DNA of 64,000 nucleotides from Acholeplasma sp. (GTDB lineage: Bacteria; Bacillota_I; Bacilli_A; Acholeplasmatales; UBA5453): contig JAVBWN010000001.1 of NCBI GenBank assembly GCA_036677365.1, positions 16,664 through 80,663 on the forward strand. Direction: 5' to 3'. Below the pieces are notes generated by a model that was not told the DNA's origin, ran no database searches, and worked only from the letters and a program-made list of their open reading frames with translations. Below are positions 21,927 to 58,540 of this stretch, piece by piece. The translations under genes and the position numbers were made by a program. Positions within the stretch are counted from its first letter, which is position 1. Every line of letters begins with the position of its first letter.

Positions 21927-22856
21927 CTATTTTTCAGGATGATATAAAGTGTAGCTGCCTTTACCTTTGGCTTTGGATTGATACATGGTTTTATCGCCTA
22001 AGTTTAGTAAGTTGTGATAACCCTTGTTTTCTTCTGTGATTTGTACAATCCCAATCGAAACACTGATGCCAACTGTTTTCGCAACCTCAGTCAGATTTTC
22101 AATATCTCGGATGATTTTTTCTGCTCGTGCTTTGATTTGTTCTAAAGTATGGTCATAACAATACATGAAGAATTCATCCCCACCCAACCGGTAGTATAAA
22201 ACATTGTGTTCCCATGTACCAATGAAATAGTGGGCAATGTCAATCAGCAATTGGTCACCAGCCTGGTGTCCAAATTGGTCATTCACATACTTGAAGTCAT
22301 CAATATCGAGGTACATGACATAGGAATTTTGGGTGGAAGTTAAGTGATTCATATGTAATTTGAGCGTTTCTCTAGAAAACAACTTCGTTAATGGGTCTTG
22401 ATAGGTTTTTTGATAGTGGATGATTTCAATCGGTGTTTGTTCATAAATCCTCACCACTTGTGCAAACACGATGTGTTTTTGTTTTACATGGTGTCTTGTA
22501 AATGACATATAAAGCCATAAGGGTTCTAGCTGTCTTTTCACAGGGATATATAAATACAATTCCTGATCAAAGGTGTTGAACTTGTTTCGAATGTTTTGAA
22601 TGAAACTGTGTCTACCCTCAACCTCAGCGAGTAAATTGTTCTCATCGACATAAGCAAACAGATTGTTGACAGGGAAATAGGTCCATTCTGGCAGAGATAC
22701 ACTCGATAATTGACCAGAAGTCACACGACACATCAAAGGCTTTTCATCGATATCGATCACGAAAGACACACGTCTATTTGAAGAAAACGCAATCTCGTTA
22801 TAAAAATCGATGTTGTATTCGGTTTTCAGCCAATCTACGACTTTTGGATCAACCAT
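21927..22856 (-). CDS. Diguanylate cyclase (GGDEF) with uncharacterised N-terminal domain
   Basis: DPLTKL, LDIDDFKYVNDQFGHQAGD, RLGGDEF intact; no RxxD I-site five residues before GGDEF. Confidence 0.92.
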   Translation of the reverse strand: MVDPKVVDWLKTEYNIDFYNEIAFSSNRRVSFVIDIDEKPLMCRVTSGQLSSVSLPEWTYFPVNNLFAYVDENNLLAEVEGRHSFIQNIRNKFNTFDQELYLYIPVKRQLEPLWLYMSFTRHHVKQKHIVFAQVVRIYEQTPIEIIHYQKTYQDPLTKLFSRETLKLHMNHLTSTQNSYVMYLDIDDFKYVNDQFGHQAGDQLLIDIAHYFIGTWEHNVLYYRLGGDEFFMYCYDHTLEQIKARAEKIIRDIENLTEVAKTVGISVSIGIVQITEENKGYHNLLNLGDKTMYQSKAKGKGSYTLYHPEK

Positions 22857-23053
22857 GTTGAAATCCCCCCACATTTACCAAATTCATCATATCATATGCG
22901 AAACCGATTACAATACCAAAATCATAAAATCCATCCAATCGACCATCAAAAGGGGATTGGAACCGTTTTCATTTTTCGTGCCATCGAGAAAATGCCCACG
23001 TTCATCCCGGTTTTGATATGATTTTTTTGTGATATAATAGAACAGGTGATATT

Positions 23054-24909: not shown

Positions 24910-25905
24910 ATGAGCGTAAAAGTAACGATTTATGAAGTAGCCTTAGCGGCAAGAGTCTCATTAGCAACCGTTTCAAGAGTATTAAACAACCCTGAAAAAG
25001 TTAAACCAGACACGAGAGAACGCGTCTTAAAAGTCATTAAAGAACTCGGCTATCGCCCAAATGCGATCGCTAGAGGTTTGGCGAGCCGTAAAACCACCAC
25101 TGTGGGTGTTTTGGTCTCTGATATCACGAGAGCTTCTGTTGCTGAAATGCTTGGGGGTATCTCCGACATCGCGATGAAGTATAGCTATTCAATCAAACTA
25201 TTCTCTGCCCATGAAGATGTCAACATCATCGAACTCATCAACGACATCGTGGCTGAACAAGTCGATGGCGTGTTGATCTTAAACGATGAGCTCGACGCAT
25301 CTAGAATGAAGAAAGTCAAAGAATTATTTGACGAAAACGAAATCCCATTCGTTTTAGCGAACGTGGTCAATGAGGATAGATCTGTACCAAGCGTATCCAT
25401 CGATTATGAAAAAGCAGGGTATGAAATCACCAAATTGATGATTGAAATGGGTAAAAAAGACATTTACATGCTTTCTACCGTGAGAAAATATTCCGTCAAC
25501 GATAAGAAAGAATTGGGCTACACCAGAGCAATGCAAGAAGCACACTTAATGCCACGCGTGTTCAGAACCTCCGGGACGACATCTGTTAACCGTCAACATT
25601 TCGCAAACTTCTTCGCCGATAAGATCATCGATGGTGCCATTGGTGTCCGTGACTCGATTGCCGTATCTTTCATGAATATTGCGAATGAATCTGGCCGTTC
25701 TGTCCCTGAAATGGTATCTGTCGCAGGCTTCCAAAATACGAAGTATGCGCTTTTATCCCGCCCAACCTTGACATCGATTGATATCCCAGTGTATGATATC
25801 GGTGCAGTAGCCATGAGACTATTAACCAAACTCATGAATAAAGAACAACTCGATTCACTTCAAGTTGTATTACCTCACTACATTGTGAGAAGAGAATCAT
25901 TATAG
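24910..25905 (+). CDS. ccpA: LacI-family regulator, probable catabolite control protein A
   Basis: VTIYEVA...VSLATVSRV...YRPNAIARGLASRKTTTVGV; YDIGAVAMRLLTKLMNKE; cre-like TGAAAGCCTTTACA at 24856-24869 in its promoter. Confidence 0.88.
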   Translation: MSVKVTIYEVALAARVSLATVSRVLNNPEKVKPDTRERVLKVIKELGYRPNAIARGLASRKTTTVGVLVSDITRASVAEMLGGISDIAMKYSYSIKLFSAHEDVNIIELINDIVAEQVDGVLILNDELDASRMKKVKELFDENEIPFVLANVVNEDRSVPSVSIDYEKAGYEITKLMIEMGKKDIYMLSTVRKYSVNDKKELGYTRAMQEAHLMPRVFRTSGTTSVNRQHFANFFADKIIDGAIGVRDSIAVSFMNIANESGRSVPEMVSVAGFQNTKYALLSRPTLTSIDIPVYDIGAVAMRLLTKLMNKEQLDSLQVVLPHYIVRRESL

Positions 25906-26105
25906 GGTCGTTGAAAAAAACACAGTAAGCTTAAACTTTAGAACATAGAGACTTTGTGTTAGGTGAAAACAAAGCTGGGTTTAAACTGAATTACACTTTT
26001 GGAGATCCAACAATTAAAAAGAGTGCTATGGGCAACCATAGAACTAAGGTGGTACCACGATTGTTATAGTCGTCCTTAGATTGATTTTTAAGGACGGCTT
26101 TTTAT
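25906..26105 (+). promoter_or_regulatory. T-box riboswitch (Tyr)
   Basis: AGAGA/GGTGA stem I motifs; specifier UAC at 25992-25994; T-box AAGGTGGTACCACG 26046-26059; terminator before tyrS. Confidence 0.93.
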
Positions 26106-28211: not shown

Positions 28212-28304
28212 TTCAAAGACGCTTAGTTCAATATAGAACTTGAAGGCGTCTTTTTTCTTTACCATATTTATGGTACGATATAAACATCTTACACGGTGAA
28301 CAAA

Positions 28305-31300
28305 ATGAAGACACTCAGTCAGCTACAACTGAATATGCTACATGCTTCCAAACAGTATGATCACTATCCGATCCAAATCGGGTGTTTTTTAGATTTATCT
28401 CACCTTGAAATCAACCCAGATAAGATTGAATCCTATTTTCATCACATAGACGAATTACATCAAACCATTATCTTATTGGATCATGTACCCTATTGGATCA
28501 ACATTGATCAAAAACCCAAACTCTTATCAATTCATCAAAGAGATACCCAAGCGTTTTTCGAAGCACCATTTGAGTTGAATTCACCTTTCTATCGAATCGC
28601 CATAGAAAGTGAAACCAACCGTCTTCTGTTCGTAGCGAACCATATATTACTCGATGGCACATCGATTCAGTATTTGATGAAGTCGCTGTATCTTCATTTA
28701 CAAGATTTACCGAATGGGGGATTTTCAAAAGCTAAAGAAACACAGCCCATACAACCGGAGGCGCAAGCCTTTTTTGAAGAAAAAATTAGACAAACGCCAC
28801 CTACGTTCATCAAACCTTATCATCATTTTTCAGGGGTACAACCAGCCAAAAGGAAACATGTGGTACTAAAGAAAAATTTCTTAAGTGACGATGTATCATC
28901 ATTTTCATTATCCACTTTGATAGAAGCTGCCATCGTGCTATATTTATCCTACCTATATCCAAAACAACCTGTCCGTTACGGGATGGTTTTAAGCCAAAGA
29001 CAATCGTCTGAAAAAACAGCTTTAGGGATGTTTTCACAAGTGTATCCAATGCATGTCAATATCACGGAAAACCCTACCATAGAGACATTTTTAAAACACA
29101 TTGAACTTACACATCGTCAAGTCTTAAGAAGAAGATTTGTCGATTTTGAAGCATTGTTGGCTTGTTCCAAAGCCCATCACCAAACAACCCAATTGTTTGA
29201 TTTCACAATCATCAATCAAAGTAGACATTATGATGAACACATTCCGATTGAACCCTTGTTTTACCCCTATATAGATCAGTCTTTGGTTATCAATATACTT
29301 GAGGGGGACGATACCCATCTCTACCTAGATTATCAAACCGGTATATATACGGAACCGATGATTGACCGATTGATTAAGAGACTTAAATACATCATCGTTC
29401 AATTGAGTAAACTCAACAATGTGTCTGATGTCTCTGTGTTGTTTGATGAAGAATTGCCCATGATTTTACCTAAAGTAGAGAAAAAACTCATGGATTTGTA
29501 TCATCAAAACTTAGATTCACATCTAGAAGATATCGCCATCATCGACGATCAAGCCATCACTTATCAAAAGCTAGAAACGGATTCAAACCGTTTGAGTCAC
29601 GCATTGGTAAACATCCAAGTAGATACCATTGTCATCGATGGTCATAAGACATATCGATCCATATTGACAATGCTTTCAGCCATCAAGGCAGGAAAACCAT
29701 TTGTTTTTTATACATCAGAAACCAACACCTTTTTGAATCCACCAATCAATATCGACAATTTAGATTGGCAGCACCAATCACCCTTATACATCGATTATCC
29801 TAAAAATCCGATTCTGGCGTATTATTTCACTTCGGGTACTCAAGGTAGAAAACAAATCGCCACTACAAGAGATGCACTTTACAATCATTTGACTGGGGCA
29901 CCTTATATCAGAGAAGCGAAAGATTTAAAACGGATACCTTTATTATCAGCACTTCATTTCGATATGAGTTTGGAAGAAATCTGGGTTGCATTACTGCACA
30001 AAATCACCTTGGTATTGTTCGATGAAGAGACGTTCAAACAACCATCCAAAAGGCTAAACCGTTTTGATCTTTACCCTGTGGACGGAATCACAACCACCCC
30101 TTCAATGATTAAAATCTTAATGGATGACCCTAAACTCATGTCGACTTTGAAATGGCTGGTTTTAGGGGGTGAAACCTTGACACCTGGATTGGTTAAAAGC
30201 ATCCTCGCTTATCCTAACATCCAGTTATACAATAGCTATGGTCCAACCGAAACCACCATCGCTGTCACATCCACTCAGATAACATCCAGTGCGTCTATTT
30301 CCATCGGTAAAGCCCATTCAAACACCCAAGTAATGATTTTCAATGAGAAGCCATTGCCATGGGGAGATATCGGCGAAATCTATGTTCAAGGTATGAATGT
30401 CAGTCCATCGGTAAAGACGGTGATGTATCAAGACAAACCATTTTACCCAACGGGTGACCTAGGTTATCAAGATGAACATGGGGTTATCTATTTTATCGGT
30501 CGAGGTGACCGAACCATTAAACGCCACGGGGTCAGAATCGATTTGAACTGGATGGATCAAAAAATCCAACAACACCCATCGGTCATTCAAGTTTGTTCGG
30601 TGTTTAACCAAAATCAAATCATCAGCTATGTTCAAACCAATCCAAAAGCAGATGAAGACATCGTGAGACAGTACATCTTCAATACACTTTCCCCGCAACA
30701 TAGACCCAATCGAGTGGTGTTCACACAAAACATCACCAAAGAAGGCAAAATCGAAACACGGGATAATGTGAAACAAACCCCGTTTAAACCAAACAACCTA
30801 AAAGAAAAAGCGATTTTTCACGCTTTATCGATTGTATTAAATCATTCAAAATTTAGTCTGGAAGATGGGATTGTTACCCATGGTGGAGACTCACTCTCAG
30901 TCATCCAAATCTTATCCATCTTAGACCAATATGGGTATGCATTGGATACGGAACATTTAGAAACCAAAACAATAGCGGATATTATCCGCGATACACAAAA
31001 ACGAAACATATCTTATAAACAATTGAAAAAGCACCCAAAGGGTCTACCGATTGCAATGGGTAATTGCATATGTCTTTATGGTGGAAATGGATTTTTAGGC
31101 ATCCATTTATTGGATACTTTTATAGAACAAACCGATGCCAAAGTGATATTACCATTACGTGTTTCAAAAGCAGTACTTGAAGAGACTTATGCGTACTATA
31201 TAAAGAAAAAACTAGACACCAGTCGAGTTCAAGTCATACCTTTTGATGCTACGATAGATCACTTAAATATCGATACCATCATCAACGCTACAGGGTATAC

Positions 31301-31937
31301 GAAGTATCAAGGCAAGCCTGAAATCTATGATTACATCAATGTCGATTTCGTATTAGATCTTGCAAATAAAGCGAAAGATTTAGACATCTCTTTAGTTCAT
31401 ATATCCACCTTAGGTATTGGTGCTTATGAACGGGTATTTGATGAAGCACGCAGACGCATTCGAATGACTTTTAGTAACCCTTATTTAACGTCTAAAGCCA
31501 AGGCAGAAGTGGCGTTAAGTGAAATCGAAGGCTTGAATTACAAACTCATTCGTGTGGGTAATCTGACGCCTAGTCTTAACCAAATGGTACCACAAATAGG
31601 TAACGATAATGCTTTTATGAAGGGATTATCCAATTTAGTACACCATCACAATTCAAACTTATATGGCATTCATTTTGATATCACCCCAGTAGATATCGCT
31701 TCAAACGCAATCGTTATGTTTTTAAAATCAACCATGACCATTGGACATGTGGTTCATCCGAATAGATATCACTATGATGGTGATACAAAAGGTATGGCAA
31801 TAGATGAAACCAAGCCAGTGATTCGAAGCGAAAAAACTCAACAAGTCTTAAAGAAATTAGGGTTTAGATACGCAAAATTAGATACCGATTATTTAAAAGC
31901 CATGGGTGAGATTGCTGAAAAAAACAGGGACGTGTAA
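28305..31937 (+). CDS. Single-module NRPS-like enzyme, C-A-T-R (terminal thioester reductase)
   Basis: C: NHILLDG; A: FTSGTQG, FDMS, GGE, NSYGPTETT, YPTGDLG, GRGDRTIKRHGVRID, EGK; T: GGDSLS; R (SDR): GGNGFLG, HISTLG, YLTSK, RVGN. Confidence 0.9.
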   Translation: MKTLSQLQLNMLHASKQYDHYPIQIGCFLDLSHLEINPDKIESYFHHIDELHQTIILLDHVPYWINIDQKPKLLSIHQRDTQAFFEAPFELNSPFYRIAIESETNRLLFVANHILLDGTSIQYLMKSLYLHLQDLPNGGFSKAKETQPIQPEAQAFFEEKIRQTPPTFIKPYHHFSGVQPAKRKHVVLKKNFLSDDVSSFSLSTLIEAAIVLYLSYLYPKQPVRYGMVLSQRQSSEKTALGMFSQVYPMHVNITENPTIETFLKHIELTHRQVLRRRFVDFEALLACSKAHHQTTQLFDFTIINQSRHYDEHIPIEPLFYPYIDQSLVINILEGDDTHLYLDYQTGIYTEPMIDRLIKRLKYIIVQLSKLNNVSDVSVLFDEELPMILPKVEKKLMDLYHQNLDSHLEDIAIIDDQAITYQKLETDSNRLSHALVNIQVDTIVIDGHKTYRSILTMLSAIKAGKPFVFYTSETNTFLNPPINIDNLDWQHQSPLYIDYPKNPILAYYFTSGTQGRKQIATTRDALYNHLTGAPYIREAKDLKRIPLLSALHFDMSLEEIWVALLHKITLVLFDEETFKQPSKRLNRFDLYPVDGITTTPSMIKILMDDPKLMSTLKWLVLGGETLTPGLVKSILAYPNIQLYNSYGPTETTIAVTSTQITSSASISIGKAHSNTQVMIFNEKPLPWGDIGEIYVQGMNVSPSVKTVMYQDKPFYPTGDLGYQDEHGVIYFIGRGDRTIKRHGVRIDLNWMDQKIQQHPSVIQVCSVFNQNQIISYVQTNPKADEDIVRQYIFNTLSPQHRPNRVVFTQNITKEGKIETRDNVKQTPFKPNNLKEKAIFHALSIVLNHSKFSLEDGIVTHGGDSLSVIQILSILDQYGYALDTEHLETKTIADIIRDTQKRNISYKQLKKHPKGLPIAMGNCICLYGGNGFLGIHLLDTFIEQTDAKVILPLRVSKAVLEETYAYYIKKKLDTSRVQVIPFDATIDHLNIDTIINATGYTKYQGKPEIYDYINVDFVLDLANKAKDLDISLVHISTLGIGAYERVFDEARRRIRMTFSNPYLTSKAKAEVALSEIEGLNYKLIRVGNLTPSLNQMVPQIGNDNAFMKGLSNLVHHHNSNLYGIHFDITPVDIASNAIVMFLKSTMTIGHVVHPNRYHYDGDTKGMAIDETKPVIRSEKTQQVLKKLGFRYAKLDTDYLKAMGEIAEKNRDV

Positions 31938-31951
31938 ATGTCCCTGTTGTG

Positions 31952-32964: not shown

Positions 32965-33170
32965 AAAATAAAACGCCCTTAGAAAAATATCTAAGGACGA
33001 CAATGTCGCGGTACCACCTTAGTTCTATGGAAAACCATAGCCCTCGAATGTCTTTATAGCCGACCTGCTCATACTCTGTAGGCCCATTCATTTATGTATC
33101 CTTTGAAGGCTCTCACTGTCCCTCCTCGCTTGTAAAGTCATCGATAAATTACTATTCTACGTCTTCGTAT
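32965..33170 (-). promoter_or_regulatory. T-box riboswitch (Trp)
   Basis: Specifier UGG (plus CCA 33084-33086); T-box AAGGTGGTACCGCG (33007-33020); terminator; TTGACA-17-TAAAAT promoter at 33177-33205. Confidence 0.93.
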
Positions 33171-33307
33171 ATGCCTATTTTATGATAAAAACAGGGTTTT
33201 GTCAAAATATTTCCAACCCAAATCGATAGATAGATCAAATGATATCGCTTTAATGGTTTTATGGGTTGACAATATATTTTTTAATAGTATAATTCAACTT
33301 GTTGATA

Positions 33308-33450
33308 TCTCCGAATCCACAGAGTGGGGGACCCATCCATTTCAGGGGTGAATGGCATCATTTAGATACCTAAGGATACTTAATGTCCTGAATCCGTCAG
33401 CTAACCTCATAGGAGTGATTAAGCGTATAAATCATTTATGCGTTTTTTTT
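33308..33450 (+). promoter_or_regulatory. c-di-AMP (ydaO/yuaA) riboswitch with terminator
   Basis: CCGAATCC..GGGGGACCCA..GGGGTGAAT..CCTGAATCCGTCAGCTAACCTC.TAGG; TTGACA-16-TATAAT (33266-33293); hairpin plus U8 at 33421-33450. Confidence 0.9.
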
Positions 33451-35259: not shown

Positions 35260-37815
35260 TTATTTTCTTATCGTGTCCATCGGATGATGAAGGAAATAAG
35301 AATATGTTGGAATTAGAGTTGTTACAAAAAAAATGATGATGTTTAAAATAACTAAAATGAATGCGAGATTCCAGTTAAATATGAATAATATGAATCTGAA
35401 ATCATAGTATTTATACAGAAAGTAATTAACGGATTTAAAAGTGAGTATGATTGCTAATAAAGATACAATGTATGAAATAACACATATAAACCCACTTTGC
35501 ACAGCAAAAATCTTTAATATATCAGCAAATGAACTACCTAACGACCTAAGTATACCTATGTTTTTGCGCATAATCACAATATTGTTTGTAATATATTGAT
35601 AGAATAAGAAAAAACTAATCAAGAGCACAACAATACTCACCAAAAATCCTATCATGGACAAACTCTGAAGTTGGTTATTGAAATGAGCATTTGTTTGGTA
35701 TATTGGATTCAATATAACAAGAGAATCTGTAGTACTTAAGGCTGTTAATTGATTATGGCTATCCACTTTAATTAATGCACCTACATAATATTGAATATCG
35801 TATTTTAATACCATCTCATTGTAAAAATCATCAGAGAACACAATACCATTACTTAAATTTAACGTACTATCATCGTAAAATCCATATAATGAAAATTCTC
35901 TGAAACCAAAGATTAAATCAGAAACGCTGACTTTGATGGTTGAAATCAAATTATAGTTGTTATTTATAAAGTTTTTGATAGCTTCAATGCGGAAATAATT
36001 GTAATCATAACCTGGATGATATGCATTATCAGCGTGGGTCATTATGTATGTTTTATAAGTTCCGCTTTCGTTGTTTTCAAAATCAGTTTGGATAGATGGG
36101 TAGTTTAAGTCGACAAAATTATCAATCAAAACATTCAAATCATGAACAATCATGTCACCATATGTATTATGCATTTCTATCATCGAAAAAGGTAGTAAAA
36201 TTTCATTATCGTTTAAATCTCTGTCATTGGATGAAATTATCTGTACATCAGATTGTGATAGATATGATTTTTGAAGCATTAGATAAGATTGAAACATTGT
36301 TAAATCAGATTTAAAACCCAAATTCATTGTTTGTGGAAGTCTGTTTTGTTTCACAGTATCTTTCAAAAACACATTATTAAAATAAGATGGACTAAAAAAA
36401 GTAATTTGATGTACTTCACTCATAATGACAGATTGAAGTTCAATCGATAATTGTAAGGTTTCAATATTGTTTTGATTTAAATCTACCTCAGTATAACGAG
36501 ATGATACAAACCCAGTATCAACAATGCCGACAACAGTAAAATATGAATCTGATATTTCGAATGCCAATCCTAATAAATCTGAATTCGAACTAATGATGAC
36601 AGGGTTTTGATTCAGATCCAAAAATGGGTTTTTCTTAAGAATGTCATATACATGTGCTGTTATTGCAATTTCATCATCATTTTGAGGCAATCTTCCAGCA
36701 CTTAACTTCCAACCTAAATTGATTAAATCCTCTTGATTAATAGAAATTGAACTATTAGATTCATGAATGAATGTATTGTCCTCTGGTGGATTGATAAATC
36801 TATAATTTGGTGAAAAATGATTAAAAATAGGGATAGGATTACCTGGTAAAGCAATGATTTCATCATACGAACTCGTTCGATAAGGTAATAGACTATCGTC
36901 TGAATTCACAAATTTACCAACGACAATAGAGTCATTGTATGCTCTCATTGCTTGATAAGCATTTGAATCCAATTCGTAGTTTGCAATAGAAAAAGGTAGA
37001 CCAAAGAGGATTAATGATAATGTCGACATTAAAAGTGTAATTACTAATTTCATCTTTAACTTATTTATTTGTCTTAATCCTAGGATAGAGACAAATTTGA
37101 GAGAAAGTTTACCCTTTTTCATGGTTAAATTATCCAAAGAATTATGTTCATGTGTAATTGTGTTTCGAATTACCTTACCACCTTCAAGCTCAACAATGTG
37201 ATCATTAAATTGACGAATTGCATCCATATCATGAGAAGCAACCACAAACAGTCTGTCTTTGGACAACCGCTTTATTAATTTCCAGACCATTAAACTCGAC
37301 TCTGAATCTAACGCACCAGTTGGTTCATCAGCAAGAACTATGGGTGCGTTTTTTATCAAGGCACGTGCGATAGCAACTCTTTGCATTTGTCCACCCGATA
37401 GTGTTTTTGAAAGACGTGTTTCAAAACCTTCCAGGTCAACAAGGGATAAAATCTCAGATATTTTTCTTGAATCTTCTGGTTGACCTGATAAAATCATTGC
37501 TATGGATAAATTATCATAAACAGTGATATCATCAATGAGGTTATAATCTTGAAATACTAAACTAACTTGAGAACTTCTATACAAATTTTGATCATATTTT
37601 GATAATGATGTAACTGAAATGTTCTCATAATCAATATTGCCAGAATCTGGTTTATCAATACCGGCGAGCAGGTGTATCAGTGTTGATTTCCCACTGCCCG
37701 ATTTTCCATAAATGCACACCAGACCTGTTTTTGGAAATGATAAACACATATCATTAATTGCTGTGATTGTTTCATTGCCTTGTAAGTATTTTTTTGTTAA
37801 GTGTTTTATTATCAT
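35260..37815 (-). CDS. MacB-like fused ABC ATPase plus FtsX-type permease
   Basis: GKSGSGKS, LSGGQMQRVAIARAL, ADEPTGALD; C-terminal IGILRSLG plus TM helices; visibly more AT-rich than its neighbours. Confidence 0.88.
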   Translation of the reverse strand: MIIKHLTKKYLQGNETITAINDMCLSFPKTGLVCIYGKSGSGKSTLIHLLAGIDKPDSGNIDYENISVTSLSKYDQNLYRSSQVSLVFQDYNLIDDITVYDNLSIAMILSGQPEDSRKISEILSLVDLEGFETRLSKTLSGGQMQRVAIARALIKNAPIVLADEPTGALDSESSLMVWKLIKRLSKDRLFVVASHDMDAIRQFNDHIVELEGGKVIRNTITHEHNSLDNLTMKKGKLSLKFVSILGLRQINKLKMKLVITLLMSTLSLILFGLPFSIANYELDSNAYQAMRAYNDSIVVGKFVNSDDSLLPYRTSSYDEIIALPGNPIPIFNHFSPNYRFINPPEDNTFIHESNSSISINQEDLINLGWKLSAGRLPQNDDEIAITAHVYDILKKNPFLDLNQNPVIISSNSDLLGLAFEISDSYFTVVGIVDTGFVSSRYTEVDLNQNNIETLQLSIELQSVIMSEVHQITFFSPSYFNNVFLKDTVKQNRLPQTMNLGFKSDLTMFQSYLMLQKSYLSQSDVQIISSNDRDLNDNEILLPFSMIEMHNTYGDMIVHDLNVLIDNFVDLNYPSIQTDFENNESGTYKTYIMTHADNAYHPGYDYNYFRIEAIKNFINNNYNLISTIKVSVSDLIFGFREFSLYGFYDDSTLNLSNGIVFSDDFYNEMVLKYDIQYYVGALIKVDSHNQLTALSTTDSLVILNPIYQTNAHFNNQLQSLSMIGFLVSIVVLLISFFLFYQYITNNIVIMRKNIGILRSLGSSFADILKIFAVQSGFICVISYIVSLLAIILTFKSVNYFLYKYYDFRFILFIFNWNLAFILVILNIIIFFVTTLIPTYSYFLHHPMDTIRK

Positions 37816-40714: not shown

Positions 40715-40739
40715 GTGGTTGGTATCGTCATCCAATACT

Positions 40740-40872
40740 ATGTCAATCGCAAACCTAGAGCAATCTAGTGACGCAAAGCTATAGGGTCTTTATGAGACAG
40801 CCAGTTGCCATTTCAGAAGCATTTGTGTGGTAACTTCATTTAAAGTCTACACAAATGGTGGGGACTTTTTTT
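40740..40872 (+). promoter_or_regulatory. c-di-GMP-I (GEMM)-class riboswitch with terminator/antiterminator platform
   Basis: GCAAACC-TAGA-GCAA-TCTAG-TGACGCAAAGC-TATAGGGTCT..GAGACAGCCAGTTGCC follows the GEMM consensus; alternative hairpins at 40820-40857 and 40843-40872. Confidence 0.88.
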
Positions 40873-50009: not shown

Positions 50010-50105
50010 CTTACAGAGTAATAAGGAAGCGTTAAGTGATCAACCATGGGATGTCGGGTTGGTACGAACACGTAAGTGGCGGTTTCCTTGTGCGTCCGCT
50101 GTAAG
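50010..50105 (+). promoter_or_regulatory. THF (tetrahydrofolate) riboswitch
   Basis: CAGAGTA..GCGTTAAGTG..ATGGGATGTCG..ACGAA..GCGG..GCGTCCGCTG, upstream of a folate ECF S component. Confidence 0.92.
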
Positions 50106-58193: not shown

Positions 58194-58299
58194 GGGTTTA
58201 TTCGCGTATTTACGCAATTCTTAAGATTTATTTATAATTCGCTAAAAAATGGGTTGCAATCTCATTGGATGTGACCTATAATTGATGTATACTTAATCT

Positions 58300-58540
58300 G
58301 GTTTAAGGTGTACTTAGTACATAACAGGGAAGAAAGTTAAAAGCTTTCGCTGCCCCAGCAACCGTAAGATGGACAACTCACAAATACCACTGTGTATAAC
58401 GGGAAGGTGTGATGCGGATGAAATCGAGCCGGTAGACCTACCTAAAACCCAATCAAGTACCGCCTGGGTGATGCGTGTATGAACAACAATTTTTGATTGT
58501 TATTTATATCTATACTCCAGGTGGGTATAGATTTTTTTAT
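58300..58540 (+). promoter_or_regulatory. Cobalamin riboswitch with terminator
   Basis: AAGGT..AACAGGGAA..GCTGCCCCCAGCAACCGT..CCACTG..GGGAAGG..GAGCCGGTAGACCT; TTGCAA-17-TATAAT promoter at 58254-58282; hairpin plus U7 at ~58508-58538. Confidence 0.92.

Follow-up and report, generated by a model that had tools for sequence, protein, structure and literature searches.

We analysed a 64,000-nt stretch of Acholeplasma sp. DNA (the window), in which one forward-strand gene, at 28305..31937, encodes a compact nonribosomal peptide synthetase (NRPS). At the level of sequence the product is confirmed as a single-module enzyme with condensation (C), adenylation (A), thiolation (T) and terminal reductase (R) domains in the order C-A-T-R, encoded by an intact open reading frame (ORF). 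Intact frame, invariant catalytic residues, purifying selection and orthologs in the same chromosomal slot indicate that the gene is most likely functional. The interpretation we favour, with confidence a little above even, is that of a working, streamlined, stand-alone NRPS that loads a diamino acid, acylates it in trans, releases it reductively and is primed by AcpS or by an enzyme that escapes recognition.

According to this interpretation, the A domain would activate L-ornithine or L-lysine and load it onto Ser866 of the T domain, which would have been primed by the housekeeping AcpS or by the unrecognised enzyme. The C domain would then move a trans-supplied acyl group onto one or both amino groups, and the R domain would use NAD(P)H to release the acyl-amino-acyl thioester, giving an aldehyde or, if this is reduced once more, an amino alcohol. 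The expected product would be an N-acyl or N,N'-diacyl derivative of ornithinal, ornithinol, lysinal or lysinol. N-acylation by the C domain and release as aldehyde or alcohol, proposed in the original prediction together with a role as protease inhibitor or membrane aminolipid, are plausible from the architecture; how many amines are acylated, how far the thioester is reduced and what is finally made are inferred.

Domain architecture and compactness of the synthetase

Under genetic code table 11 the frame is open from GTG at 28296 (1213 codons) or from ATG at 28305 (1210 codons followed by TAA). Because the N-termini of orthologs read MK[AT]LS, we assign ATG 28305 as the start and 1210 amino acids (aa) as the length of the protein. 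Residue numbers given here are those of the record P0001, counted from GTG 28296 and thus three codons ahead of the ATG start.

All four domains lie on the forward strand. The C domain (28305..29471, residues 4-392; PF00668) carries the motif NHILLDG with H116 and D120, and the A domain (29472..30785, residues 393-830) was delimited from Pfam and NCBIfam matches and invariant columns. The T domain, a peptidyl carrier protein (PCP) domain (30786..31040, residues 831-915), holds Ser866 within GGDSL (codon 30891-30893). It is followed by a terminal thioester reductase of the short-chain dehydrogenase/reductase (SDR) type (31041..31934, residues 916-1213), placed by PF07993, profile matches and invariant columns. 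Searched as a single protein against Pfam, the sequence matched Condensation (PF00668) at residues 203-373 (4e-14), AMP-binding at residues 505-703 (7.5e-32) and NAD_binding_4 (PF07993) at residues 929-1139 (2.4e-10). The T domain is weak in this respect, reaching 20.9 bits with PF00550 in the genome scan (30849-30989) against a cut-off of 20.8. A profile of 13 family members gave much stronger matches to solved structures: residues 77-910 aligned to the C-A-T structures LgrA (7e-145), SrfA-C (5e-77) and TycB (2e-75), and, among T-R structures, residues 821-1205 matched 6vtj (5e-40) and 4f6l, the R domain of AusA (1.9e-36). Domain detection and motif positions therefore agree with the original prediction that four domains with recognisable catalytic motifs fit into 1210 aa, and the motifs it quoted were located at residues 115-121 (NHILLDG), 512-519 (TSGTQGRK), 861-866 (HGGDSL), 929-935 (GGNGFLG) and 1063-1067 (YLTSK).

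Conservation was counted over the 13 family members, which have a mean column identity of 56% and a minimum of 27% to the query. Invariant in 13 of 13 are H116, D120 and G121 of the C domain and G863, D865 and S866 of the T domain. In the A domain they comprise Y510, T512, S513, G514, K519, F555, D556, the stretch N646-E652 (NSYGPTE), Y717, T719, D721, G735, R736, D738, K742, G817 and the A10 lysine K818. The R domain retains G929, G932-G935, S1037, T1038, Y1063 and K1067 throughout. Adding three more distant members brought no variation to H116, D120 or S866, nor to the core of the A domain or the triad of the R domain (16/16). Departures from the canonical motifs are few. At the first His position of HHxxxDG the window allele has Asn and the distant members have His (N, S, H or C overall), the second His being always kept, and the A-domain P-loop, for which the textbook consensus is TSGTTGxPKG, is one residue shorter than that form.

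The C domain occupies the starter position at the N-terminus of the protein. Since it begins at residue 5, from where a conserved N-terminal motif runs, no upstream module precedes it. When the C domain by itself was used as a profile to search 1.84 billion representatives, there were 62,288 matches, the best 150 of which were nearly all giant multi-module NRPSs, with two single-stretch representatives of the family (P0003 and P0119) among them. As the several C domains of a giant NRPS add up in such a search, it is uninformative on subtype and relatives. For residues 1-380 of the ortholog P0009, the nearest clusters in the ESM Atlas were generic 'Condensation domain' proteins of 395-456 aa, which goes no further than the Pfam assignment.

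The original prediction had called the protein compact for its architecture, and this is borne out by a comparison of six family members with three other single-module C-A-T-R proteins from the protein hit list, P0033 (1489 aa), P0037 (1392 aa) and P0040 (1337 aa). Members of the family fall short of these by about 150 residues. The shortfall is spread over 19 gaps of 4-24 residues in all domains and linkers, with about 35 of the missing residues at the C-terminus, and no family-specific insertion was found in this alignment. Matches to solved structures show the same compression, residues 87-895 spanning 913 residues of LgrA and residues 821-1189 spanning 410 of the AusA R domain. Streamlining affects the whole protein, and no subdomain has been lost.

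The gene is flanked by tyrS, a DagK/YegS-type lipid kinase gene, the convergent trpS and a cation exchanger gene. An intrinsic-terminator-like hairpin with a U-run (28215..28259, forward strand) ends the upstream kinase gene. Its stem region (28215-28253) folds with -16.6 kcal/mol (z -4.5) and none of 200 shuffles was equally stable, so the upstream terminator noted earlier is a genuine feature by fold energy, z-score and shuffling. With this terminator in front of it, the NRPS gene forms a transcription unit of its own; a consensus scan detected no sigma-70-like promoter at 28212-28304. At the 3' end, the terminator scan placed a bidirectional terminator-like hairpin at 31923..31948 (both strands), which overlaps the NRPS stop codon and is common to the gene and the convergent trpS. 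Contigs from three RNA libraries in three studies of sludge and other metagenomes (X16, X17 and X18) include pieces inside the gene at 95-100% identity (five, one and two listed pieces, respectively), with further pieces on trpS, on tyrS and on the gene for the kinase. These pieces are compatible with transcription of the gene but do not prove it, since such contigs show neither strand nor level and DNA may contaminate RNA libraries.

Substrate pocket, acyl donor and relation to known systems

The A-domain pocket reads DMETVGSIAK (D556, M557, E560, T599, V622, G624, S647, I655, A656 and K818), a code that had originally been aligned by eye and that was reproduced both by HMMER alignment to PosA and by script. 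Script extraction gave D-[MLI]-E-[TS]-V-G-S-I-A in 13 of 13 members, with Met at position 2 in ten, Leu in one and Ile in two, and the pocket code is the same across alleles only 44% identical. As a control of the extraction, the script returned the recognisable codes DLTKIGEVGK, DFWNAGMVHK, DVWHISLIDK and DILQLGLIWK from unrelated matches, which we take to be the usual codes for Asn, Thr, Ser and Gly, respectively.

When residues 540-700 were compared with all Protein Data Bank (PDB) sequences by HMMER, the A domain of PosA (8G95-8G98) ranked first (E 3.9e-13), ahead of GrsA-PheA, and the motif FDMSxEEIW is common to the NRPS and PosA. PosA is the delta-poly-L-ornithine synthetase of Acinetobacter, with the code DMEHNGTVSK (PMC10522769). 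In PosA the alpha- and delta-amines are held by Asp217 and Glu221, and activity is lost when either of these residues is mutated; further hydrogen bonds to the delta-amine come from Thr304 and Ser313, with S313A costing 183-fold; and Met218 is proposed to set chain length, Met selecting ornithine (Orn), Ala lysine (Lys) and Phe diaminopropionate or diaminobutyrate (Dap/Dab) (PMC10522769). Codes published for Lys are DAESIGSV for BacB-M1 (PMC3207962, Table 2), DIEDVGSVVK for MmaA/Rv0101 and DTEDVGTVVK for ScoA (bioRxiv 10.1101/121228, Fig. 1 legend). These share the pattern D-x-E-x-[IV]-G-[ST]-[IV] with the window pocket, which is identical to DIEDVGSVVK at six of ten positions (D, E, V, G, S and K) and differs from it at positions 4 and 9, among others. 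Because Asp1/Glu3 is the signature of diamino-acid activators, a basic diamino acid, L-ornithine or L-lysine, is the likely substrate. The earlier hint at a basic amino acid is in line with this, residues 1 and 3 (Asp and Glu) matching both the L-Orn pocket of PosA and the Lys codes.

In a FastTree phylogeny of 100 A domains, the family stands on its own long branch (1.09) and its sister group was not placed. The same tree contains a separate clade of proteins of about 1200 aa from high-G+C sequences (P0045, P0046, P0048, P0055 and P0057) in which A-T-R is preceded by no more than the C-terminal portion of a C domain. With the pocket code DLE[LV]IG[ST]IVK they are also of the diamino-acid type, and their A domains group with those resembling poly-lysine and poly-ornithine synthetases.

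The closest precedents are single-module Lys-loading enzymes with one C and one R domain, not the gut C-A-T-C-A-T-R dipeptide-aldehyde NRPSs. ScoA and MmaA, whose domain order we take to be C-A-T-R, resemble the window NRPS in having one C domain, a Lys-type A code (D-x-E-x-V-G-[ST]-V-x-K), a terminal R domain, an acyl carrier protein (ACP) donor in trans and reductive release. They belong to actinobacterial isonitrile lipopeptide clusters; in them one C domain acylates both Lys amines from acyl-ACP, the R domain carries out a four-electron reduction to the alcohol, and both enzymes prefer L-Lys and do not activate L-Orn (bioRxiv 10.1101/121228). They differ in working with four partners (acyl-ACP ligase, ACP, thioesterase-like lyase and Fe(II)/2-oxoglutarate oxidase), none of which lies beside the window NRPS or beside four distant family members, and in code positions 4 and 9, which are D/V in place of T/A; the likeness is one of description and code. 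The myxochelin NRPS MxcG is likewise a C-A-T-R enzyme that loads Lys, acylates both amines with aryl groups and releases its product reductively. Against the MxcG model NF038078 (1442 positions) the window NRPS scored 98.6 bits, with a cut-off of 2300, the match covering the A-T part (residues 507-874), and no enzyme activating an aryl acid (2,3-dihydroxybenzoate) and no aryl carrier were found in its genome (G000) with PF00501 and PF00550.

More distant likenesses concern single domains. PosA is the best solved match of the pocket, being identical at code positions 1-3 (D, M, E) and 6 (G) and having Thr where the window NRPS has Ser at position 7; it differs at position 9 (Ser313 versus Ala), and the A domains are not grouped in the tree. 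PosA and the epsilon-poly-lysine synthetases (Pls) combine A-T with membrane-embedded tandem C-like domains and make homopolymers, unlike the C-A-T-R protein of the window. AusA has the same SDR-type R domain, as also indicated by its structure 4f6l matching residues 821-1189, and its model NF047350 is the best NCBIfam match (1.1e-52), with 178.4 bits against a cut-off of 2500. Yet AusA and the gut dipeptide-aldehyde and pyrazinone NRPSs are two-module enzymes that make dipeptides (C-A-T-C-A-T-R; PMC10979478), and the window NRPS has a single module. The general A-domain model TIGR01733 reached 166.7 bits against a cut-off of 317. Since all NCBIfam matches fall far under the curated cut-offs, the protein is a divergent NRPS that fits no named equivalog. 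It would work like the single-module Lys enzymes but belongs to none of them: it fails their models, lacks their partners, is smaller and occurs in Acholeplasmatales only.

The gene content of G000 narrows the possible acyl donors. The genome has one C domain in total and two carrier domains, the T domain of the NRPS and a canonical ACP (DLGADSLD), and it encodes a FabF ketosynthase. No second AMP-binding enzyme exceeded the PF00501 cut-off in G000, where one sub-threshold match scored 20.7 bits, and the genome showed neither another NRPS nor a partner enzyme that activates an aryl or fatty acid. Since there is neither a second adenylating enzyme above the cut-off nor a second free ACP, the aryl capping of MxcG and the ligase/ACP route of ScoA are unavailable. 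In the absence of a partner synthetase, an activating enzyme and an upstream module, the donor should come in trans from primary metabolism, most likely as fatty acyl-ACP of type II fatty acid synthesis (FAS II) and otherwise as acyl-coenzyme A.

Nor do the surroundings of the gene elsewhere supply a partner. The neighbourhoods of four distant members share nothing with each other or with the window locus. In Haploplasma axanthum (G072; L022, 9709-12809, minus strand) the gene directly abuts that of a MacB-type FtsX permease (796 aa) in convergent orientation, next to which are genes for an ABC ATPase (238 aa) and a MarR regulator; these could be an export or resistance set and are not conserved at the other loci. 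The member in G057 has pgsA and recA on one side and ferritin on the other, and those in G031 and G052 lie among unknown small genes and a DEAD-box helicase gene. Judged from these loci, the gene seems to work alone everywhere.

An alternative outcome of the same domain set, which we consider unlikely, is that the alpha-amine alone is acylated and the product is released as an aldehyde, onto which the side-chain amine closes to give a cyclic imine or hemiaminal, a small reactive compound (for instance a protease inhibitor or signal) and not a lipid. This corresponds to the peptide-aldehyde idea of the original prediction. The intact Ser/Thr-Tyr-Lys set of the R domain would permit this, the Asp1/Glu3 pocket implies the required side-chain amine, and R-ending C-A-T-C-A-T-R NRPSs are described as giving protease-inhibiting aldehydes (PMC10979478). 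However, ScoA and MmaA, the closest single-module Lys loaders, acylate both amines and reduce to the alcohol, the sequence does not separate two- from four-electron reductases, and no conserved immunity or export gene stands beside the NRPS.

A more specific version of the favoured interpretation is frankly speculative and, in our estimate, less probable still. Here an AcpS-primed minimal NRPS would use acyl-ACP from FAS II to make mono- or di-acylated ornithinol or lysinol, a cationic or two-tailed membrane aminolipid of the wall-less Acholeplasmatales, and the fast change of the protein around a fixed pocket would reflect tuning of the acyl chain between species. OlsBA and OlsF define an established route to amino-acid lipids. 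If the proposal were true, the window would encode an amino-acid lipid route unrelated to OlsBA/OlsF and a natural case of an AcpS-type phosphopantetheinyl transferase (PPTase) serving a PCP domain.

Distribution, selection and priming

G000 is a Paracholeplasma genome (Acholeplasmatales) of 1.97 Mb in 37 contigs, with a completeness of 99.9%. It is congeneric with Paracholeplasma vituli, a contig of which carries a 45%-identical ortholog. In a collection of 5.8 billion proteins, searched over lengths of 667-2123 aa so that fused forms above and split forms below fall outside the range, 12 of 82 matches belong to the family (P0002-P0013; 1197-1287 aa; 96-28% identity; at least 94% coverage). 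Named members come from Acholeplasma/Paracholeplasma vituli, Haploplasma axanthum and an Acholeplasmataceae metagenome-assembled genome (MAG). Beyond them the E value drops from 9e-76 to 3e-45, the value of a generic NRPS. Sixteen of 201 sampled genomes of the order matched at E <= 1e-20. Eight of these have the full-length family (G000, G040, G014, where it is split over two contig ends, G022, G072, G057, G031 and G052), and in the remaining eight the matches are parts of larger NRPS frames. The family thus appears to be small and confined to Acholeplasmatales, and its presence in 8 of 201 genomes sits well with the earlier statement that NRPSs are uncommon in mollicute-like genomes. A full-length member with 27% identity over query residues 3-1155 was also seen on a 10.8-kb contig (L044) of a MAG labelled Staphylococcaceae; this contig is either mislabelled or mis-binned Acholeplasmatales, or the product of a transfer outside the order.

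DNA near-identical to the gene occurs in 12 sequencing runs from 11 studies, the possible source sample excluded, with half or more of the sampled words of the gene present in each run. Apart from two coded single-organism records, the runs are metagenomes of wastewater, bioreactor, sludge, sediment, soil and algae, and the organism thus recurs in engineered and natural waters. Among the titles and abstracts listed for NRPSs in Acholeplasma or Mollicutes, none dealt with this family.

In the genus-mates G040, G014 and G022 the gene occupies an identical slot (tyrS, DagK-like kinase gene, NRPS gene, convergent trpS). Identity to the proteins of the window amounts to 86-100% for the flanks and to only 80%, 54-56% and 45%, respectively, for the NRPS. 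From four other genus-mates the gene is cleanly absent. In G009, whose flanks are 89-98% identical, the slot is a bare terminator of 32 bp, and it measures 69 bp in G049, 179 bp in G018 and 483 bp in G025, where it holds an unrelated 140-aa frame. No remnant of the gene was detected in these four slots, the best tblastn match having an E value of 0.67.

Nei-Gojobori estimates for the pair with G040 gave dN 0.120, dS 0.717 and omega (dN/dS) 0.167 for the NRPS gene. For ten flanking genes omega was 0.00-0.06 and dS 0.03-0.70, the dS of the NRPS gene being at the top of that range. Omega per domain was 0.16 for C, 0.20 (0.197) for A, 0.085 for T and 0.16 for R, and no window of 100 codons exceeded 0.29. 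Selection is therefore purifying in every domain and none is decaying; the dN/dS comparison suggested in the original prediction thus gives no sign of decay (0.167 overall, domains 0.085-0.197), though selection is looser than on housekeeping genes. In each of the three pairs (G040, G014 and G022) dN of the NRPS gene exceeds that of the flanks, such as the adjacent tRNA-synthetase genes, by a factor of about 8-12. Horizontal transfer or allele replacement is unnecessary to explain this divergence, as the order G040 < G014 < G022 is alike for the gene and its flanks. With the same divergence order and a constant dN ratio, vertical descent at a steadily higher rate suffices. The orthologs in G040, G014 and G022 are intact at dS values from 0.7 up to saturation.

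A T domain has to be phosphopantetheinylated, and the search for the responsible enzyme gave a divided answer. PF01648 identified one gene in G000, encoding a 118-aa AcpS with a full-length match to the ACPS model (68.9 bits), and one AcpS-sized frame each in G040, G022 and G072. In G057 an AcpS-sized frame (123 aa) is accompanied by a second matching frame of 212 aa, and in G031 the match falls within a frame of 222 aa. These two longer frames encode proteins of 211 aa (G057; L120, 718-1353, minus strand) and 206 aa (G031; L121, 557-1177, plus strand) with the motif WxAKEAxxK, which we take to be the signature of Sfp-type enzymes. Used as a query, the Sfp-like protein of G057 retrieved a divergent 235-aa homolog in G072 (L123, 419-1126, plus strand; E 1.3e-11), which has no Pfam match at E <= 0.001. 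A custom profile of the two Sfp-type proteins, run against 6136 six-frame ORFs of G000, had the AcpS frame as its sole match at E <= 0.1 (E 0.018). Of the PPTase expected elsewhere in the genome, then, the AcpS type is present, and no Sfp type was found in G000, G040 or G014, whereas G057, G031 and G072, which carry the family in other genera, have Sfp-type candidates. Since omega is lowest in the T domain and Ser866 is invariant, we favour priming by AcpS or by an unrecognised enzyme over a dead protein. This step is the weakest of the argument.

Several points weigh against a working enzyme of the kind we favour. The G057 Sfp query found nothing at E <= 1 in G000, G040 and G014 and an E value of 0.14 in G022. 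AcpS enzymes usually do not prime PCP domains, and the protein could stay in the apo form in Paracholeplasma. Constraint on the gene is relaxed relative to housekeeping genes. As for the substrate, the family lies outside the clade with 22 of 24 other D-x-E domains and phylogeny adds no support; as the family is not nested with that clade, the call is drawn from the pocket residues, and the tree speaks neither for it nor against it. At position 9 of the code, Ala stands where PosA has Ser313, by which one PosA contact is lost. Orn and Lys cannot be separated by the pocket as it reads, Met2 being as in PosA (Orn) and Ile2 occurring in the Lys-activating MmaA. Furthermore, on the single sequence Pfam recognises only the C-terminal lobe of the C domain and misses the N-lobe; the C subtype could not be assigned, and no product is assigned to the family.

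The first of these points could be taken further, to a Paracholeplasma protein that is never phosphopantetheinylated after loss of the Sfp-type PPTase and is now a decaying or non-functional remnant, or has a role free of the carrier arm. This would fit the pattern of Sfp-type enzymes, found in G057, G031 and G072 and not in G000, G040 and G014, as well as the 8-12-fold faster divergence of the protein than of its flanks and its clean loss from the slot in G009, G018, G049 and G025. We nevertheless regard it as highly improbable. Omega is 0.09-0.20 in every domain with the T domain the most constrained, Ser866 and all catalytic residues are invariant, and the pocket code is unchanged across 44%-identical alleles. 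Moreover, four species hold about 1200 codons open at dS 0.7 to saturation in a 39% G+C genome. To the same low degree we credit a non-acylating C domain that would only stabilise or activate the A domain in a Lys2- or carboxylic-acid-reductase-type enzyme that turns Orn or Lys into a cyclising amino aldehyde: the partial Pfam match to the single sequence and the existence of partial-C-A-T-R proteins with a D-L-E pocket (P0045, P0046, P0048, P0055 and P0057) suggest it, but the C domain here is whole, with His116 and Asp120 invariant in 16 of 16 and the N-terminal motif from residue 5, the family profile from residue 77 on aligns to complete C domains of solved NRPSs, and the C domain is as constrained as the R domain.

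Surroundings in the window and significance

The original prediction found no tailoring, transporter or PPTase gene beside the NRPS gene. This stands for its immediate neighbours and needs qualifying further out, as a gene for an 851-aa MacB-like fusion of ABC ATPase and FtsX-type permease lies 3.3 kb downstream (35260-37815, minus strand) in a stretch of low G+C (0.315). None of the seven genus-mates examined has this fusion gene at the otherwise syntenic locus; in them a gene resembling P-II abuts the M3 peptidase gene (in G025 it is trpS that does so). The fusion gene looks like a strain-specific insertion. A functional tie between it and the NRPS was rejected, since other NRPS-bearing genus-mates lack it at their loci. 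A tie to the upstream DagK-like kinase was rejected as well: a terminator lies between the two genes, the kinase gene holds the same place in genus-mates without the NRPS, and it is not found beside the distant members.

The aminoacyl-tRNA synthetase genes on either side carry T-box leaders, that of tyrS at 25902-26080 (forward strand, 95.8 bits) and that of trpS at 32990-33174 (reverse strand, 92.8 bits, 0.2 under the gathering score). The two leaders form inverted repeats of 40 nt (85% complementary) and 44 nt (75%) at a distance of 6.9 kb. They bracket tyrS, the kinase gene, the NRPS gene and trpS, and the unitigs of one metagenome run break exactly there. A cyclic di-AMP riboswitch (33299-33430, forward strand) precedes a gene of the Na+/H+-exchanger family and the P-II-like gene, and a cyclic di-GMP-I riboswitch lies at 40738-40812 (forward strand). 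With a GGDEF diguanylate cyclase gene at 21927-22874 (reverse strand), these elements represent signalling by cyclic dinucleotides in a small-genome bacterium that has no wall. The window further contains a tetrahydrofolate (THF) riboswitch (50012-50103) and a cobalamin riboswitch (58289-58459).

The secondary metabolism of Acholeplasmatales and other mollicute-like bacteria is almost unexplored. The enzyme described here would be a natural minimal C-A-T-R NRPS, about 150 residues shorter than other single-module forms, without partner genes and with one ACP in the cell. It may therefore be a convenient system in which to ask how a starter C domain picks its acyl donor from primary metabolism and whether an AcpS-type PPTase serves an NRPS. 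An acyl-ornithinol or acyl-lysinol lipid, if that is what the enzyme makes, would provide these wall-less bacteria with a further component that is surface-active or part of the membrane; an aldehyde would be a small reactive metabolite.

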